Below are positions 5,626 to 63,204 of a DNA stretch of 64,000 bases, piece by piece (the stretch's first letter is position 1; every line of letters starts with the position of its first letter). Under the pieces are notes generated by a model, which was not told the DNA's origin, searched no databases, and saw only the letters and a program-made list of their open reading frames with translations. A program made the position numbers and the translations under genes. This DNA comes from Callorhinchus milii (Eukaryota): contig NW_024704756.1 in the NCBI RefSeq assembly GCF_018977255.1, positions 6,882,001-6,946,000 on the forward strand. The letters are read 5' to 3'.

Positions 5626-6245
5626 TGTTTGCCAGTTTATCACAGTTTAGAATAATTTAGCTTGAATTCAGGCTGAATTCAGTGCTTAAAAAATTGCTAC
5701 ACGCATCATGTTCGAGCTGGATTAGTGACCTTCGTCAGGGAACATTGCTGTAATGCCATGTATGAATCAGGATAATTATTTGGTAATGATTTTGTTAAGC
5801 ATTAATGGTCACTGGGATAGATGAGGCACCAGTTGGAATTTACTCAAGACACCATATCGTTTTTTCACCAGCCTTTTGTTTTATAAATACCAGATAACAG
5901 TTCACTGCAGGTAAACTCACTCTGAACGCAATGTGCTCTGTCTGACTAGGACCAGGAGCTGTAATATTAACATGTGGAGAAGAAATTTTAAAATGCAACT
6001 TTTGTTGGTTAAAACAATAAACCACGGTTTTAGATACATTGTACTGGATTTTACATGGGTCTTCACATGCATGTGTAACAAATACATCTGCAACCTTTGT
6101 GAGATTTTCATATGTCCAGTCACACAAAATTCCAGTCATTTATCATCTACGACTAGTGAAGTTAGTTGAATGCCAAGTAAAAGTAAGAGGATGTTATCAA
6201 AGGCTCCACACACGTACAAACTTATCTCCCAACTCGAAAAATGTA

Positions 6246-7645
6246 CAACAACAACAACAAAATTACATTTATAGAGCGCCTTTCACGTCGGGAGGACGTC
6301 CCAAGGAGCTGAACAGTCAGATGTCAGGGCCCGAGCATGGGGGGATGTGGTGTAAGGATGAGGGAAGACAGAGAGGTGGGAGGAAGACCAAAGGCAAGAT
6401 CGAAGAGAAGGGTCTTGAGACCGGCCTTGAAGGATGCGAGGGAGAAAGCGAGGTGATGGGACTGTGGGATGGAGTTCCAGAGTGTGGGGGCAGAGAAGCT
6501 GAAAGCCCGGCCACCGATGGTAGGGCGGGTCGGATGGGAGACATGGAGCAGGCCGGAGCCCGCTGAATGGAGGGAGCGGGCAGGTTGGTAGGGAGTCAGC
6601 AGGTCAGAAAGGTAGGAGGGGGAAAGGCCATGGATGGTCTCAAAGGAGAGGACGAGAATCTTCAACTCGATCCTCTGGGGGATGGGGAGCCAGTGGAGTC
6701 GGGCGAGGGTTGGAGTGATGGGGTCACGGAGCCTGCAGCTTGTGAAGGGAAGGGTTGGGAAGGCCAATGCGGAGGGAGTTCCCGTAATCACGCCTTGAGG
6801 TGACGAATTCGGGGGTGAGGGTTTCAGCATCCTGTGGGGTGAGGCAGTGGCGGAGACTGGCAATGTCGCGGAGGTGGTGGTAGGCAGTGCTGGTCATAGC
6901 GCGGATGTGGGGGAGAAAAGACAGTTCAGGGTCGAACAAGACACCCAACTTCCTGACTGGCTTAGTGAGGTTGAGTGTGCAGCCGTGGAGGCTGATGCTG
7001 CCAGCGCCCGAGGTGCGGAGGCGCTGGCGCGAGCCAATCAGGAGGGCCTCAGTCTTGCTGATATTGAGTTGGAGAAAGTTGGCCCTCGTCCAGGACTTGA
7101 TGTTGGACAGGCAGTCGGTCAGGACGCGAGTAGTCCTGGAGTTCAGGGTGGAGGCAAAGAGGTAGAGTTGTGTGTCATCCACATATATGTAGAAATTTAC
7201 CCCATGTCTGCAGATGACGTCAACAAGGGGGAGCATGTAGAGGGTGAAGAGGAGGGGACCGAGGACAGAGCTCTGAGGAACACCGCACGAGACAGTGCGG
7301 GGGCTGGAAGAGAAGCTGTTTGCCGTGACAAAGTGGAAGCGGTGTGAAAGGTAGGACCTGAACCAGTCAAGGACAGAACCTTGAAGGTTGAGGTGGGAGG
7401 AGAGGCGGTGGAGGAGAATTGAGTGGTCCACGGTGTCAAAGGCAGCGGAGAGGTTGAGGAGGACGAGGAGGCAGAGGGAGCCCTGGTCACACATGGTCAG
7501 GATGTCGTTTCTGACCTTGATCAGACCACGGGTTTCCGTGGGCAGCACGGAAACCCGATTGGATGGGGTTCATGGAGGGAGTGAGAGGAAAGGAAAGAGT
7601 GAAGCTGGGAGCCAAGGGCTCTCTCAAGGACCTTGGATACAAGAA
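6246..7645 (-). mobile_element. L2-clade LINE, 5'-truncated (RT region through 3' tail)
   Basis: Minus ORFs 6724-7548 and 6324-6863 contain LLNLSAAFDTVDH, GVPQSSVLGP, YVDDTQLY, LHWLPIPQRI and GGRAFSFSAPTLWN. The element ends in the 3' stem-loop and a (TTG)n tail. Confidence 0.95.
6324..7640 (-). pseudogene. Disrupted L2 ORF2 reverse transcriptase
   Basis: RT motifs carry substitutions (LDLS>LNLS, PQGS>PQSS, YADD>YVDD), with frameshifts near 7545 and near 6730. Confidence 0.9.
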
Positions 7646-9150: not shown

Positions 9151-9609
9151 TTCTTTCATCTGGACTTTAAGTCAGCATACACCATCAAGTATAAGTTGCT
9201 TTAGAGAGCATGGGATGAAAATTCTACACAGCACTGTACATAGCGCCTTTGGCAATGCACGACTATAAAATACACAGTCACTATATCTTATAGAATAACC
9301 TGTGAAATACTTTGCTGTGAAAACAGGAGTCATGCTCCTGTTGTGAAAGATGCTAAATGCCATAAGCGACCAATGGCCAACATTATATTTGGTGATGCAC
9401 GTGGCATTGAACAGAATTTACCCACATATCTGGTTTGTGGATATCACTGCTGATATCACTTGTTGAATTCATTTGCTGTCATATCATCAGCTTTTGTTCC
9501 CTCAAAGAAAAAAAATGCTGCAAATAATCCGACTGATACATTTACTGTGAAAGTATACATCCTCTGCTAAACTCCTCCACTGTAAACATTGTGCTGTCGG
9601 TTTGTCATT

Positions 9610-10178
9610 AACAACAACAATAACAAAATGACATTTCTATAGCGCCTTTCACATCGGGAGGACGTCCCAAGGCGCTGGACAGTCAGAGTTTCGGACTCAA
9701 CTTGGGGGTCGGGATCGGGGAGGGTAGAGGGCAGGGTGGGAAGCAGGGTGTTCAAATGCACAGTTAAAAAGGAGGGTCTTGACATGGGTCTTGAAGGTAG
9801 CGAGGGAGGGGGCGAGGTGGAGGGACTGTGAGATGGAGTTCCAGAGGGTGGGGGCAGAATGGCAGAAGGCCCGCGCGCCAATAGTGGGGCGAGCGAGGCA
9901 GGGGACGTGAAGCAGGCCGGAGCCTGCTGAGCAGAGGGAGTGAGCAGGATGGTAGGGGGTTAGGAGGTTACAGAGCTGTGGAGAAGCAACACCATGGAGG
10001 GCTTTGAACGTGAAGACTAGGATCTTAAACTGTATCCTCTGTGTGAAGGGATGCCAGTGGAGTTGGGCGATGATCGGGGTGATAGGGTCGCGGAGCCTAG
10101 TGCAGGAGAGGACATGGGCTGCAGTGTTCTGGATGATCTGCAGCCTTTGGAGGGAGGAGTTGGGAGGCTGACAAGCAA
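9610..10178 (-). mobile_element. L2 LINE 3' fragment
   Basis: ORF 9697-10230 contains LQIIQNTAAHVL, LHW and RIQFKIL. Same 3' stem-loop and (TTG)n tail as the 6246 copy. Confidence 0.93.
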
Positions 10179-11694
10179 GGTGTATATGAGTATTGTCTAT
10201 ATTAAGAAATAGATTAAAAATATTCCACATAATAGACTTTTGTGGGGAGGTTAAAACCTGTTGAGCGGTATCATTTAAAGAGGACAGGATATTAATGGTT
10301 TAAGCTTCACTAACAGATGAAACTGAGCTTAGAAATGGAGAAACATTATGTGGAGGTATTTTTTTCATGTACCAGAACAGCTTTCATCCACTAATATCAA
10401 GTGAGATTGTTTCCACACCCACTCTAATTAGTTTCCTCCTTTTCATCTCCCAATCAGTTATGTACGTTAATGAGCTAAGCTTCTGTTTTATGGTCTTGTT
10501 TGATCCTTTTCACTAAGTTTGAAGATTTATAACATACACAAATTGAAAATTATCTGTCTCATTTACAGGCCATCGGTTATTTAGACACCATGCTAAATTT
10601 GTTATCCTTGATATCATGTATATTTGTTACATGCCAAATCATGGTGTTATGTAACATTGCTATCTAAAATGCAGGTTGGGCTAAAAGGCCTCTGGGCTAA
10701 CCATGCTCAAACACACACAAGCGCCCTTGCTTATATTATTCACATCAATAATAAAGGATCACAAGTGATTTTGCAATGCTTTTCACTGGCTGGTTACATG
10801 GACCTTTTGACCAACCCCAAATTTTGCCCAAGTTTTACTGCAAATTATTTAGTGCTAGAAGAGTTAACAACAACAACCTGCATTTATTTAGGACCCTTCA
10901 CACAGGGTAGCATTCCAGAGTGCTTCACCATTAATTACCTAAGCGTTGCTTGGTAGTTCTGGTGCTGTGTATGTCAGAAGCTTGCTTAGAATGCCCTGCA
11001 CACGATAAGGCACGAGAAGGAGAGATAAGTGTGTTTTATCAAACACAAGGATTATTATGATTTATTTATTTGGTTTGATGTTTAGACAGTTACCATCTAC
11101 TCTCCATATTATATACCAATTTCTGCAGCTTCTATCTTGGTGCCTCAGCAAATCAATGCAACATAGACAAATAGCTATTACCAATGTTGATGTACAGTTC
11201 AGGGTTTTAGTTTGGTATTATCAATTTAAATATGATCTATAAGGAAAATGAGGTAAAATTTATGGCATTTCCTAACCCATTCCTTTTGTTAATTATCACA
11301 AGGAATAAGTTAGGGAAATACTAAACACTAAACTCTAGCGTTCCTTAATCAGCTGTAACCTAGGTGCTGCTCCCATCGCACAGCCTTCTCCTCCTATTTA
11401 GCCTGCTTCCTGCTCGCTAGTGGGAGAAAGAAAAAATTGGAACTCAACTTTATATAATTGTCGACAGTTGGGTGATTGTAGCTCCAAATAGAGCTTTAAA
11501 TCGTGATTTTGTAATCTCTACCTTCATCGCACATTTGATACGTTAGCAATTTTTAAATTTAATTTCTGAATGTAGCCTTTTATACATAATATGCACTGAT
11601 TGTGACCCAGTAATTAATGGTAAATAAAAATCACACCTTTGTACAAAGTGAATATGGTAGGCACCACACTATCTGTGTTTCTCTTTTTGGACAC

Positions 11695-19570: not shown

Positions 19571-20768
19571 CAAAACACAAAATACTGCAGATGCTGGAAA
19601 TCTCAAACAAAAACAGAGAGAGCTGGGAAAACTCAACAGGTCAGGCAGCATCTATGGAGAAAGGAAAGTGAGTCAACGTTTCGGGTCCACGAATCTGTGT
19701 TTGGTCTCCCTTATGTAGACGAGACCACATTGTGAGCAGTGAATAAATTGGTGGAAGTACATGGAAATCGCTGTCTCACCCGGTAGCAGAGTTTGGAGCC
19801 CTGGACAGTGGTATCGGAGGAGGTGAATGGGCAGGTGTTGCATCTCCTGCCCTGGCATGGGAAGGTTGCAGGGGAAAGAGAGCAGGTGTTAGTGGTGATG
19901 GAGGAGTGGGCCAGGGAGTCAAGGGGGGAGTGGTACCTTCGGAATGCTAATAGTGGAGGGGATGGAAAAATGGGTTTGATGGTGGGATCACGCTGGAGGT
20001 GGCAGAAATAGTGTAGGATTATCCGTTGAATGTGAAGGCTGGAGGGGAGGAAAGTGAGGACTAGGGGGAAGCTGTCAAGGTTCTGGGAGGGAAAGAAAGG
20101 GTGAGGCAAACGTACGGGAAATAGGACAGACACGGTTGAGGGCCCTGTCTGCCATGATGGAGGGGAATCCTAGGCTGACGAAAAAGGAGGACATTTCAAA
20201 AGCTTTGGTGTGGAAGGTGGCTTTGTCAGAGCAGGTGCGGCGGAGGTGGAGAAACTGGAAGAAGGGAATGGAGTCCTTACAGGAAGTGGGGTGGGAAGAA
20301 GAAGAACAACAAAATTACATTTGTATAGTGCCTTTCACCTTAGGAGGACGTCCCAACATGAAAGACGTTATACAAATGTGATTTTGTTGCATTTGTAAAA
20401 AAAGGGCATTCAAGGTAGCGGTGGGAGTTGGTGGGCTTGTAATAAACATCCGTTGATAGTCTATGCCCCGAGATGGAGATAGATAAATCGAGGAAAGGAA
20501 GGGAAGAGTCAGAGATGGACCATATGAAGGTAAAGGAGGGACAGAAGTTGGAAGCAAAGTTAATGATCTTTTCCAGCTGAGGGTGAGAGCTCAAAGTAGC
20601 ACCAACACTGTCTTCAATGCACTGGAAGAATAGGTCAGGGAGGGGACCAGAGTAGGACTGGAACAAAAATGGTTCAATATATCCTACAAAAAGGCAGATA
20701 GGTAGGACCCATGTGGGTATCCATAGTGACACCTTTTATTTTGAGGAAGTGAATGGAGTTAAGTGAGT
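19571..20768 (-). mobile_element. Penelope-like element (RT and GIY-YIG remnants, internally deleted)
   Basis: Minus frames give KGVTMDTHMGPTY, CLFVGYIE, LPFLDLSISI, TDVYYKPTNSHRYL (PLE RT) and CSQCGLVYIRETKHR (GIY-YIG). A PLE terminal repeat lies at 19571-19690. Confidence 0.9.
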
Positions 20769-27115: not shown

Positions 27116-28253
27116 TTCAATCTATATCATCACATAATTTGAACAGACATGACAATAATGTCACAAGAAAACACATTCTCCACATTTTAGTATACTGCAT
27201 TCTGTAGAATTTGTTTTAAAAAATTTACACGCATGAGCTGTGCAAGGATTAACATATCACGTTATTTGCACATAAAAGTGCAAAATATTTAGCAGAATAA
27301 AAAATCATTTTCTTTAATTTTCTTTTGCCAAAAGTTTCAACTTCAAGAGAATCTAGATTGAAACCAGCTTTCACTCTCAATTTATTTTTAATTTGAAAAA
27401 TATATTCAGTTATCTGGGATTCAGTTAAGTGAAATTGATTGTTGATTTGGTGGTCTTAAAAAATATTGATTGAACCCTTTAAGGTCTTTTCCACATCATC
27501 CAACTAAAAGATAACAGAAATCCTTAACCAACCAGAATTTTAAAGAAGGATTAATAGATAGTCATTGATTTCAAAACATTTTATACATTACTCTTTATAT
27601 TAACAAGCAAGGCTCTTGCTCGTGAGTAGAGGTAGTCACTGGCAGTGTTTTAATTAAGGGTGCATCAATTATAAATTTCCAATTTAAATAACTGCATTTG
27701 GATGTTTGAATAATGTTGAATGATTCACACAATATTTGTCATATTCCCTAACTCCAGTAATATGCTTTAACTAATATACCTACCTTCAAGCTATGCTTCA
27801 GCCTTCTTAGCTCGGATTTCAGCTAGGCTGTGTTGTTAGAATTTTAATAAGTGAAATTTCATGCCTCCACAGAGTTTAAATTATTCATTGGTGGGTCATA
27901 ATCATTATTCTCTCTTTTTTCATAGCAAAAATTCATCACCTGTATTTTGATCTCTGTCTCCTTCTATGCCTACCAATCTGTCTGTTCCTCTCGTTCCCAC
28001 AAATGTAATGGGATTTCTACAACTAAAGTGGTCAATATTAGCAGCAAATAATATTTGGAGATAAATCTGGATCTCAGAAGTTTTGTAGGCCACTTCACTA
28101 CAGCACTTTATTTATGTGTCAACCAGATGCTCTTGTCTGATCCATTGTCCTCAATAATACACAATAGATGCAATTCTTCAACACAATCTCATGTTTAATT
28201 ACAGGTAATGTTTCCAATTTTACAGATATTGTGGATGCACACACCACTTTATT

Positions 28254-29003
28254 AAGCCAGTCTGGAACCTTGGCATCTTGTTTGACACTCAACTGCCCTT
28301 TCTACCCCACATCTGTGCCGTGACCCACTCTGCCTTCCCCCACCTCCGCAACAACACCCAACTCCGCCACTGCCTCACCCCTCAGGCCGCTGAAACCCTC
28401 ATCCATGCATTCATCACATCTAGGCTCAACTATACCAACGCCCTGCTTTTTGGCCTTCTCAACTCTTTCCTCCACAAGCTGCGGATCATCAAGAACTCTG
28501 CCGTTCATGTCATCTCCCGTACCAGACTCCATGACCCTATCACCCCCACCCTCGCCAGGTTCTACTGGCTTCCCATCCCCCAGAGATTAGGGCTGAAAAT
28601 CCTTGCCTTCAAGGCTTTCCACAGCCTTGCTCCTTCTTACCTCTGTGACCTGCTAACCCTATATCAACCTGTCCGATCCCTCCGCTCAGCAGACGATGGC
28701 CTGCTCCACGTCCCCCGCCCGGCCCACCATACCATCAGCAGTCTGGCCTTCAGCCTCTTTACTCCACCTTTTAGAAATCCATCCCACATTCCCTTTGCCT
28801 TGCTCCTTCCCTTGCCTCCTTCAAGGCACATCTCAAAACCCTCCTTTTTGACTGCACCTTTGGCCGGCCTTCTGCCATCACTGCCCTCCACACTCCCTGG
28901 TCCCGATTCCTACTCGGGTCCAAATCCCTGACAGTCCAGCACCTTGAGATGTCCTCCTGAAGTGGAAGGCGCTATACAAATGTAATTTTGTATTGTATTA
29001 TTC
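28254..29003 (+). mobile_element. L2 LINE 3' fragment
   Basis: ORF 28278-28931 contains AETLIHAFITSRLNYTNALL and YWLPIPQR, followed by the L2 3' tail. Confidence 0.93.
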
Positions 29004-59745: not shown

Positions 59746-60859
59746 TACCTGACGAAGCCACGCTAACAATCTAACAATATGAAATTCGTGAAAATAATTA
59801 GCATTGCACAAAGAAATCTCAAAAGGCTTGGTGCAATATTCGTGCAATTTATAATCACAATGCCCCTCAGGTTCAGTTCATGTTTGGAATGAGTTGTTCA
59901 AAGGAAATTGCACTGAGTTTCAATGTCTGCATTGGACTGTCAGAACAATGGTTTAAATTTTCTAAGTGGCAATGTACCTTTTACCCACTGCATTATGTTC
60001 ATATTGTGCCTCTTTCATACTGCAATATCAAGTATGCCAATACAATTGCAATTTCATAGCCGAAAACTGCATCAGCCCAATTTCTGGCACTTTCTACTAT
60101 GACATTAATAGAGTGGAATAATGCACAATGAATGCAGCATGCTTTCAACCATCATAGTGCCCAGAATAAGGCCTATTGAAACCCATCAATAAAAATAATC
60201 CAGACCCCATCTTGAAAGAAAAAAGGAATAAATGAAAGGTGTTTTTGGAGTACAATGTCCATTGTAATGATCGCATGGAAATTTGAATGCAGTTTTTTGT
60301 CAATCAATTACTTTTTCTAGATGAGTGTCTCCAATTGTTAAGTGTGCTCAGACCATGTTCCATTCAGTAATCTTGAGTATTGGGAGCACATCCTGAGGAG
60401 CTGTGGAAATGAGCATTTTTTGTAACTTCGGAAGCAAACTTCATTGTACATCTCATGCTCTCTTTTTGCATAATGATGCGATTCTTCAACTTTATGCCGT
60501 GCGTAATGCTTGAACTGTATTCCTATTAATCTGTAACCATAGTGTGTAGTCACTGAAACATTCAGAAGAACTTGTGAGCCATTGTGAGTCTCATCCTCTT
60601 ACAGAACTAGCAGAAAAAGGCCTGAATGTTGGGTTTGAGCCAGAAGATGGGTTGGCTTCCTGAGCAAAGGGTTGGAGTGCTACAAAAAGTGAGTAACAGT
60701 GAACAATATTCTGTGTAGCATTGGCAGGAATAATTTCAGTCACAGAATTTTATCATGTGCTTTTGGTCAAACCGAGTTTAGTATGCATTGAACAGCCCTT
60801 ATCCACCAGCTGAGCTGCCACTTTAAAGAATGCCAGTACATTTCTGAGGCAGGTGCCTG

Positions 60860-61517
60860 TGTTGGAAAATAAAATCAGCCAAATCTGCAAGGAAATAACG
60901 CTAATTCCTCTAACCAGATATCAGACTGTTTTATTATAATTCGTTCGTTATTCCCCAATATCCCGATGGGTCAGACCAAAGGCCGGTACAATCAACAGAT
61001 CTTATAACAGAACAACACCACTATAGATATTTCGACTTCAAGAGTTCAACACTGTGTCTTTCCAGCACACAAGCTTGATTCTTCATGCTTTCAGTCTTCT
61101 TGCTTACAGCTTTCAATCTTCCATCTGATATCCTCAGTCTTAGTGTTTCCAGCTCTCAGTCTTCCATCTCTGTATCCTTGTCTCCACGACCCGGGACGGC
61201 TCCATCTCCCGTATCCTTGTCTCCGCGACCCGGGACGGCCCCGTACACAAAGTTATCGGAACTCTTATACCAATATTCATCCAATCATGGTGTGGATATT
61301 AGATCACCCGGTCGAAATCATGCTGGGTTCACGTGAACACCTCATGGGGTGTACGTGCCTCACACACACAAACACACTGTCCTTGAGACAGTCCGTTATC
61401 TCGTGTTCGTGTAGGGAGTTTCAGTCCCGCTGCCCACAACACACTTAACTTAAAAGTTAACCCGTTCGCAACATCTATTATGATTCTAACATTATACAAA
61501 AAGTGTAAATTCTAACA
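60860..61517 (-). repeat. 3' LTR (658 bp, full length)
   Basis: Minus strand starts TGTTAGAATT and ends TTCCAACA. Minus-strand AATAAA at 60930-60935. A 38/39-bp tandem duplication lies at 61163-61239. Confidence 0.9.
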
Positions 61518-61528
61518 GTCCCCACCTT
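61518..61528 (-). other. Polypurine tract
   Basis: Minus strand AAGGTGGGGAC directly abuts the TG of the 3' LTR. Confidence 0.85.
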
Positions 61529-62098
61529 GATACCGAATGAACATGAGGTATCACAAAATAACAAAAAAATACAAAATCAGAAAAATACTACAAGGTTACA
61601 CAACCTGATAGTACAAAAAGACAGATGATACAAAGTCAGAAAAATAGTACAAGGTCACACAACCTGGGAGGGAGGATGGTACTTCCAGGAGGCAAACTCT
61701 CTTAATGAGCTTTCTCTCGAGTTTCACAGCTCAGTCGTAACCAACAGGTTATTTCCAGCGACCACAGCCATAATTACTGTCGGTCCCGGTCCCTCTCCTT
61801 ACCCAGAGGTAATAGGGGATTTCCCACTGACTGTTCGAACGCCCGAAAGTTACTCCATCACTTACGCAATTTCCACATCGACACACAATATATCAACATA
61901 TTCGAATGTCGTTCACACACACATCAGCGCACTTAAATGCCTGGTGCGATCGCCAGCGTACTCAAATGCCTGACAAGGAGACAATCACAAACTTCCTAGG
62001 TAATATAGTCAAATATTCAGCTTTAAAAACAATCAGACATGCAACATCATTAAACGTTCGTCAAGGCTTGATTGTACCTCCCTTGTCTGTTTACTGGG

Positions 62099-62118
62099 GA
62101 ATCCTGCCGACTACGCCA
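62099..62118 (-). other. Primer-binding site complementary to tRNA-Ser 3' end
   Basis: Plus strand reads GAATCCTGCCGACTACGCCA, the 3' end of vertebrate tRNA-Ser(AGA/TGA) plus CCA. It sits 4 nt from the 5' LTR. Confidence 0.92.
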
Positions 62119-62122
62119 AATC

Positions 62123-62258
62123 TGTTAGAAAATAAAATCAGCCAAATCTGTTAGGAAATAACGCTAATTCCTCTAACCAGATATCAGACTGTTTTATTAT
62201 AATTTGTTCGTTATTCCCCAATATCCCGATGGGTCAGACCAAAGTGTAAATTCTAACA
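62123..62258 (-). repeat. 5' LTR with 522-bp internal deletion (136 bp left)
   Basis: Matches 60860-60981 joined to 61504-61517 at an AAAG microhomology, with 4 mismatches over 136 bp by manual comparison. Confidence 0.9.
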
Positions 62259-63204
62259 CCTGTTTGCTTCTAAAGGTTTGCAGACTGACCTGATGCCCTC
62301 TGCTCTGTTTTACAATTGACTTGTTTATGACTTCCAATCTATTTTGATGTTAGTTTATTTTGACTTCCTTATTCAGTTGCTATCGTTTGGGCCTCATTAA
62401 TTTTCCTTTTAGTGTAAGAGTATAGATATGTACTTCAAACAAAAAAAGTCTCCACTCTCAGAATGCTGGCAGCACAGTCTTCACTTTCCAAGTTGGATGT
62501 TATTTCAGTAAAGTTTTTCTACAATTGAATCCTTAGCATAAAATTCTAAACTTAACTGCACAACCTGTATATGTTTCTGTCATAGGCTGTAGGTGTGGAC
62601 ATATTTGTATTCTAACTCCATCTGAAAAAAAAGAAAATGTTTTTCTTATAATGGCAGGAAAAAACATCAAGCCGGTCATTCAGTAAATCACTCACTCACC
62701 TGCCTCAGTCAATCACTAACCAGTTATTTTTCTATCTTAAAAAAAGGCAATTCATCCTGACGTATGGTCTCTTCAGAGCTGGACTGCTGGGCTCCTTTTC
62801 ACTGTCAGATCCTTTATCATCTCTCCAGTCAAAATCCATTCAACATTTTCACAGTGGGGGAGAATATCAATGTAAAATTCAGGCTACTTATTGACCCAAA
62901 AATCTGTGCTGAAACTGGAGGGGTTTGTCAGCCAAATGAAAAGTGCCCTATCAAAGTTTGAATGATTGCAATCAAAAGAATTGGGTCAGATCATATCATC
63001 TGCATTTTCAGTTGCCAAAAGAAGATAAATCTCAGAAAGCAAATGCATACACTCCTGACCAGTATTGCTAAAGCATTGGTGCTCAGAGGGGAAATTGATT
63101 TCCATTCAACTTGTTTTGTTTTGTGCTGTCACCCACTTCCTTGAACTTTTCTATTGCCCCTAAAGTTTACTCTATGCACATCTGTGCACAAAGTCTTCAC
63201 GTCA

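Follow-up and report, generated by a model that had tools for sequence, protein, structure and literature searches.

The 64,000-nucleotide stretch of elephant shark (Callorhinchus milii) genome sequence analysed here, referred to below as the window, contains a long terminal repeat (LTR) element on the minus strand at 60860-62258. The element is 1399 bp long and has one copy of the target-site duplication (TSD) CCTG on either side. Read in its own sense, it consists of a 136-bp 5′ LTR, a 4-nt spacer, the primer-binding site (PBS), a 605-bp interior ending in the polypurine tract (PPT), and a 658-bp 3′ LTR (Table 1). The original prediction, made from the letters alone, had listed these cis parts (TG..CA ends, CCTG TSD, PBS, PPT and AATAAA) correctly, and all are confirmed. 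It had also described an 8-bp terminal inverted repeat, which is perfect in the short LTR but matches at only seven of eight bases at 60860. The pair of LTRs is likewise present, but that their lengths are so unequal (658 bp at the 3′ end, 136 bp at the 5′ end) had been left implicit, and the element lies on the minus strand.

Table 1. Features of the LTR element and its flanks, numbered along the window.
Feature	Position	Strand	Basis or remark
TSD, left copy, CCTG	60856..60859	.	Sequence
3′ LTR, 658 bp, full length, 'B' subtype	60860..61517	-	Sequence
AATAAA of the 3′ LTR (LTR position 583)	60930..60935	-	Polyadenylation function inferred
522-bp stretch without counterpart in the 5′ LTR; includes the two TATA-like motifs, at LTR positions 249 and 512	60978..61499	-	
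PPT, adjoining the 3′ LTR	61518..61528	-	Sequence
Env tail, 3′ untranslated region and PPT	61518..61688	-	89.8% to the last 175 bp of the L101 interior
Gag start/env tail deletion join, family-wide	61683..61706	-	Join comparison across copies
Late leader and gag start region	61695..61824	-	80-84% to coding proviruses; packaging signal likely here (inferred)
'B'-type leader	61825..62098	-	Partial match to L117, a more distant provirus (77.7% over interior 157-428)
PBS, 20 nt, complementary to tRNA-Ser(AGA)	62099..62118	-	Genomic tRNA gene ends
5′ LTR, 136 bp, with 18 bp from the U3 end fused to the final 118 bp at a 4-nt microhomology	62123..62258	-	Join unique in genome
TSD, right copy, CCTG	62259..62262	.	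Sequence

A second AATAAA in the element's sense lies at 62193-62198. The interior (61518-62122) is non-coding, as predicted, and holds no stop-free frame of note; coding potential of the element was rejected because its longest stop-free frame is only 146 amino acids, antisense and inside an LTR. The PBS bears out the proposed serine primer: 20 contiguous nucleotides pair with the 3′ ends of genomic tRNA-Ser(AGA) genes plus CCA, and ARAGORN calls tRNA-Ser(AGA) at six of the six genomic loci checked. Four sequencing runs, only guessed to be RNA, contain sequence of this family, but their coverage misses the flanks of the locus, so they speak neither for nor against its expression. Elsewhere in the window, translations inspected by eye suggest decayed non-LTR retroelement fragments at 6000-7600, 9500-10300, 19700-20700 and 28200-28900.

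The interior matches the genome at no fewer than 85 places, whereas backwards control patterns gave zero in the searches for the PBS, PPT, LTR start, interior join and 136-bp-LTR join, which places the element far beyond chance. Alignment with the 7.8-kb interior of a long relative, L101, reveals how the short interior is built. Bases 2-72 correspond to the leader (79% identity), bases 299-428 to the late leader and gag start (80%), and bases 435-605 to the env tail, untranslated region and PPT (90%). The element thus aligns to both ends of the long interior and to nothing from between, and the genes are absent. The same join is present in all 29 distinct loci with an env-joined anchor (L021 also has an unjoined anchor), and a pattern spanning the join occurs at 32 genome sites, with none for its backwards control. 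These sites divide into 21 on large contigs and 11 on small ones; the small-contig copies examined have common flanks and look like duplicated segments of two to three insertions. With this duplication allowed for, the 32 sites go back to some two dozen independent insertions, all derived from a single deleted master.

A perfect 4-bp TSD surrounds 14 of the 19 join-bearing copies in which both outer ends were located, and these 14 distinct sites argue against spread by segmental duplication. Solo LTRs behave similarly (perfect 4-bp TSD in 18 of 19, 5 bp in none), with four of them having common flanks. Many copies with different TSDs, which the original prediction had proposed to look for, are therefore found. 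The LTR start motif occurs at 454 genome sites, a total in which the subtypes are pooled and a two-LTR element contributes each of its ends. Repeats with the same flanks were seen on small contigs in several sets (G000:C363, C135, C58, C606, C1610, C133 and C1257; C73; C93 and C224; C612, C1416 and C78); they probably sit in duplicated or tandem segments and inflate the copy counts. At interior positions 155-625 of L101 the gag-start block stands three times in tandem, and short copies carry one to four such blocks.

Long elements that have these LTR ends were reached through searches with the PBS (33 sites) and PPT (57 sites). Open frames in them match zf-CCHC (E 8.8e-07), RVT_1, two RNase H-type families, integrase and TLV_coat, although stops or frame changes interrupt every coding copy read. 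LTR ends, PBS and PPT are common to the element and the coding provirus, so the long gag-pro-pol-env relative is found as predicted, and the reading of the element as a non-coding passenger of a serine-primed retrovirus is supported. L101 agrees with the printed passages of 'CmiERV scaffold 2' (PMC4422223 supplement) at the LTR start, the PBS and leader, the env tail, the PPT and the 3′ end, and is identified with it on the strength of these passages. Its LTR divergence, 0.031 as measured here, compares with 0.033 in that study, which placed the CmiERV lineage I provirus next to snakehead retrovirus (Han 2015, PMC4422223). The snakehead retrovirus placement is that of PMC4422223; in a PDB search with the partner, foamy and MLV-type reverse transcriptases were the nearest solved relatives.

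The original prediction had noted 4-bp TSDs as typical of ERV1-class and many Gypsy integrases; the probable helper is neither ERV1-classified nor Gypsy but this published, snakehead-retrovirus-related lineage. A Gypsy/Ty3 helper was rejected on the partner's second RNase H, its TLV_coat envelope and its agreement with an ERV already published. ERV4 (Chong et al. 2014, PMC4299795) is, in the passages of that source that concern it, also an ERV outside classes I and II with an envelope in non-mammalian vertebrates, but it is excluded because its TSD is 5 bp long and its gag lacks a zinc finger, against the partner's 4-bp TSD and zf-CCHC. Lokiretrovirus, as partly outlined in PMC7947760, was dropped after L101 had matched CmiERV lineage I. 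The element has the LTR start, tRNA-Ser PBS, env tail and PPT region of CmiERV lineage I, whereas PMC4422223 describes complete proviruses and 'many short ERV fragments' and mentions neither a non-autonomous family nor a common join nor subtypes of the LTR. A motif search of its supplement, in which line breaks may hide a match, found none of four motifs specific to the short family, and the literature searched, mostly title-level matches, held no description of the family. Several loci (L108, L109, L114, L128, L131, L135, L136 and L140) have the same tRNA-Ser PBS or PPT junction with different LTRs; they are related more distantly, and some keep remnants of pol at about 68-74% identity to L101.

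The elephant shark genome is among the slowest-evolving in vertebrates. The two LTRs of the element differ at 4 of 136 common bases, and its CpG observed/expected ratio is 0.84 compared with 0.33 for the remaining window. Both observations agree with the original prediction, but the youth drawn from the first does not follow, as the 95% interval is 0.8-7.4%. LTR pairs of the short family diverge by 0.021-0.048 (K2P; median 0.029 over 13 concordant pairs). Long pairs give 0.031, 0.036 and 0.020 with matched TSDs, 0.019 for L110 (TSD unconfirmed), and 0.077 and 0.060 for L141 and L113, whose flanks are unmatched. These measurements cover 25 of 35 loci, then six long elements, and do not include L157, L137, L061 and L062; L019 and L151 were left out of the median for their unlike LTR pairs. 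No pair is identical among the 13 short and 6 long ones measured. Given the similar divergence and this lack of identical pairs, the short and coding forms were active in the same old period. At the 2.2e-10 per site per year assumed by Han, the median corresponds to about 66 million years, and at a tenfold faster mammalian rate to about 7 million years. A measured shark rate of 7e-10 per generation, which comes from another lineage (PMC10587355, in the part bearing on rates), points to the slow end of this dating. An LTR divergence of about 3% together with kept CpGs does not mean youth in the elephant shark lineage.

Whole-genome runs from four samples of one study provide a further view of the locus. 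In four of four runs, the right-flank contig enters the short LTR by 44 bases, the left-flank contig ends 29-30 bases into the long LTR (below the 31-base bar), and no element-skipping joint, as expected of an empty site, is present. Rare variants are lost from contigs of this kind, and the source sample itself may be among the runs, so the result is consistent with fixation of the insertion rather than proof of it. The description of the element as recently mobile accordingly fails on two counts, the missing identical pairs and the missing empty site in the four runs.

How the short interior and the short 5′ LTR arose can be viewed in several ways. It is scarcely conceivable that the locus reflects a one-off provirus deletion or an assembly artefact. 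The former, which the original prediction had named as the outcome that would undo it, is true only of the 5′ LTR, since the interior join is common to 32 sites; as for the latter, unique contigs reach both flank-LTR boundaries in four of four other runs. A reverse-transcribed spliced proviral RNA, in place of a deletion, could also leave an interior lacking its middle, and a GT donor-like hexamer does follow the upstream break in L101. Nevertheless, no AG precedes the downstream break in L101 or L115 and a few bases at the join fit neither side cleanly, so that a splicing origin is very unlikely and, lacking an AG acceptor, was rejected. The join of the 136-bp LTR, in turn, occurs at one genome site, the present locus, in a pattern search with mismatch allowed. 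The 522-bp deletion in the 5′ LTR is therefore a local accident absent from other copies, which happened at or after integration (during reverse transcription or later). As this 5′ LTR lost both TATA-like motifs, the present copy is probably a dead end. The deletion ends about 29 nt past a TATA-like motif, near the predicted start site, which we treat as coincidence as other copies break elsewhere. LTR deletions affect the 5′ LTR in four copies (L001, L002, L003 and L016), the 3′ LTR in two (L069 and L157) and both in one (L012), too few to uphold a bias. The original reading as a young, recently mobile terminal-repeat retrotransposon in miniature (TRIM) is favoured by the non-coding interior with PBS, PPT and TSD, by the well-kept CpGs, and by one relative within the TRIM size range, yet we regard it as highly improbable. 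Apart from individual deletions and a longer composite form, LTRs of other copies measure about 570-1170 bp. The 136-bp join at a single site speaks against a short-LTR TRIM family, which was rejected, and neither the smallest LTR divergence (K2P 0.019) nor the flank contigs that enter the short LTR, with no joint skipping the element, fit recent movement. TRIMs, as delimited in passages of PMC6934838, are below 1000 bp with two repeats of 100-250 bp, whereas the element is 1399 bp long with repeats of 658 and 136 bp; it does possess a PBS and PPT and lacks coding sequence. Among the copies measured, only L012 (G000:C3:5.575 Mb) is below 1 kb and has two short LTRs; at about 875 bp, with 178-bp LTRs and a matched TSD, it is TRIM-sized and was copied at least once.

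The identity of the helper is a separate matter. Of the 658 bases in the element's 'B' LTR, the 'A' LTR of coding elements shares just the first 240 and a patch of 67 (70% identity), rather than the whole LTR. Within those first 240 bp (U3), the 3′ LTR is 94.6% identical to the LTR of the coding provirus L115. About 225 bp of the element's leader is absent from L101, L110 and L115. A related retrovirus with 'B' LTRs, since lost or not found, might thus have been the helper, the CmiERV-I-like pieces having been acquired through recombination of co-packaged genomes. This proposal accommodates the 'B' LTR core and leader that the coding proviruses compared do not have, the partial match of the leader to the more distant L117, and the frequent mosaic combinations of LTR and leader (L010, L019 and L069). 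Still, we consider it unlikely. In U3, the gag start, the env tail, the PPT and the att ends, the element shows 80-95% identity to equally old CmiERV-I-type proviruses. The loci fetched, among them 21 further PPT sites of which about half come from more distant elements, yielded no coding element whose 5′ LTR is of the 'B' type; a coding 'B'-LTR helper was rejected on this basis. Moreover, it would change the sub-lineage of the helper but not the mechanism. Since mosaic LTR and leader combinations are common, the passenger itself is a recombinant patchwork, and the parent of its 'B' LTR core and leader is not among the coding loci fetched. L010, for example, carries the join with coding-type 'A' LTRs at both ends. 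An 'A' 5′ LTR is combined with a 'B' 3′ LTR between matched 4-bp TSDs in L019 (G000:C8:0.583 Mb) and in L069 (G000:C3:25.06 Mb); their unlike LTRs could stem from gene conversion or intermolecular strand transfer. A tree built from the 3′ segment that short and long copies have in common (36 rows, fixed-length cut, with L013 dropped for lack of an anchor) places L101 in an unresolved cluster with 18 of 22 short copies. The remaining four group with other long ones and four label changes are needed, which may reflect recombination or an effect of the fixed-length cut.

Taken together, we are confident, to a degree just short of firm, that the element represents a copy of CmiERV lineage I stripped of its genes by an internal deletion, one of about two dozen insertions with the same deletion, likely mobilised by proteins of the full-length virus. 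It is an old non-autonomous deletion derivative of a published ERV, and neither a TRIM nor recently mobile. The master would have arisen through a single deletion, probably when reverse transcriptase switched templates where a few bases were shared, and would have kept the PBS, the leader through the gag start, the PPT and the att ends. Retroviral packaging signals usually sit in the leader through the gag start, and this part of the master would have served as its packaging region. The master would then have been transcribed from its own LTR, its RNA taken up by helper Gag-Pol, primed with tRNA-Ser and reverse-transcribed, with the helper's integrase inserting the product. Later, the majority of insertions in the LTR group presumably collapsed to solo LTRs, and the 522 bp missing from the 5′ LTR of the present copy would have gone when it integrated or afterwards. 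Structure and overlapping LTR divergence suggest mobilisation in trans by helper proteins. With all coding relatives read being broken, the partner can be named, as judged from sequence, at the level of the lineage.

Gene-less passengers of retroviruses are well known as a kind. The ETn/MusD and VL30 elements of the mouse, like the short family, are non-coding LTR elements moved by the proteins of a retroviral partner, but they are mammalian, have longer interiors, and their activity was shown experimentally. A related case is the cattle D-type ERVK[2-1-LTR] (PMC10924933), where, in the portion of that source relevant here, gene-less members of an ERV clade are mobilised in trans by competent ones; that clade, however, is active with de novo insertions shown and belongs to another retroviral class, whereas the CmiERV passenger is old and its mobilisation in trans is deduced. 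TRIMs, in the passages of PMC6934838 and PMC10886601 that define them, resemble the short family in having two LTRs, a PBS and a PPT, in being non-coding and in depending on a helper, and some stem from internal deletion of an autonomous element. They differ in their size and short repeats and in their Copia or Gypsy helpers; copies of the short family mostly span about 1.8-3 kb, their LTRs measure about 570-1170 bp, and their helper is retroviral. The family ties a published but thinly described snakehead-like ERV of one cartilaginous fish to gene-less passengers and some 450 LTR starts, and among the sites examined the passengers left more PPT-bearing copies than the coding form. It represents a fossil case of defective genomes carried by a retrovirus, and is useful for annotation and for ERV population history.

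Outside the window, some PBS matches lie within a longer LTR, in which a 'B' (once an 'A') LTR is followed by its old end, a PBS, 190-330 further bases, and a new AACA end. The extra module of 190-330 bases holds a poly(A)-like hexamer and matches the genome at 40 or more sites. Such composite LTRs of about 1.1-1.4 kb include L142-L148 and L161-L185 (for example, G000:C1:64968.6-64969.8 kb). Among 28 distinct composite loci examined after removal of two duplicate rows, both ends were found in 21, and 16 of these 21 have a perfect 4-bp TSD around the whole unit; L148 carries the composite unit at both ends. One altered internal PBS is common to 23 of the 25 top composite loci. L146 (G000:C19:8.159 Mb) has an intact internal PBS and a 9-base loss in the downstream PBS, past the extra module; the same downstream loss is found in L150/L013 (G000:C73), where L150 has a plain 3′ LTR and unmatched flanks. 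Tentatively, the LTR of a sister lineage may have swallowed its own PBS, so that LTR, old end, PBS and a second R-U5-like module became one unit and its descendants resolved the tandem priming sites in opposite ways; this is an open possibility to which we give a little less than even weight. If true, these loci are a natural record of two primer sites competing to redefine the end of an LTR. One targeted search, covering part of the literature, returned no description of a PBS-containing LTR, which is weak evidence of novelty, but the composite is more unusual than the element in the window and the part that a specialist might find surprising.

Two further arrangements concern the priming region. 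In L116 (G000:C52), at positions 1080-1120, an LTR-like end is succeeded by a run of about 40 bases that could pair with tRNA-Ser, well beyond the usual 18, and ARAGORN calls no tRNA gene at L100/L116; the stretch has the look of reverse transcription continued into the tRNA primer. In L149 (G000:C30:1.188 Mb), the PBS region is tandemly duplicated, with two PBS copies 35 bases apart.
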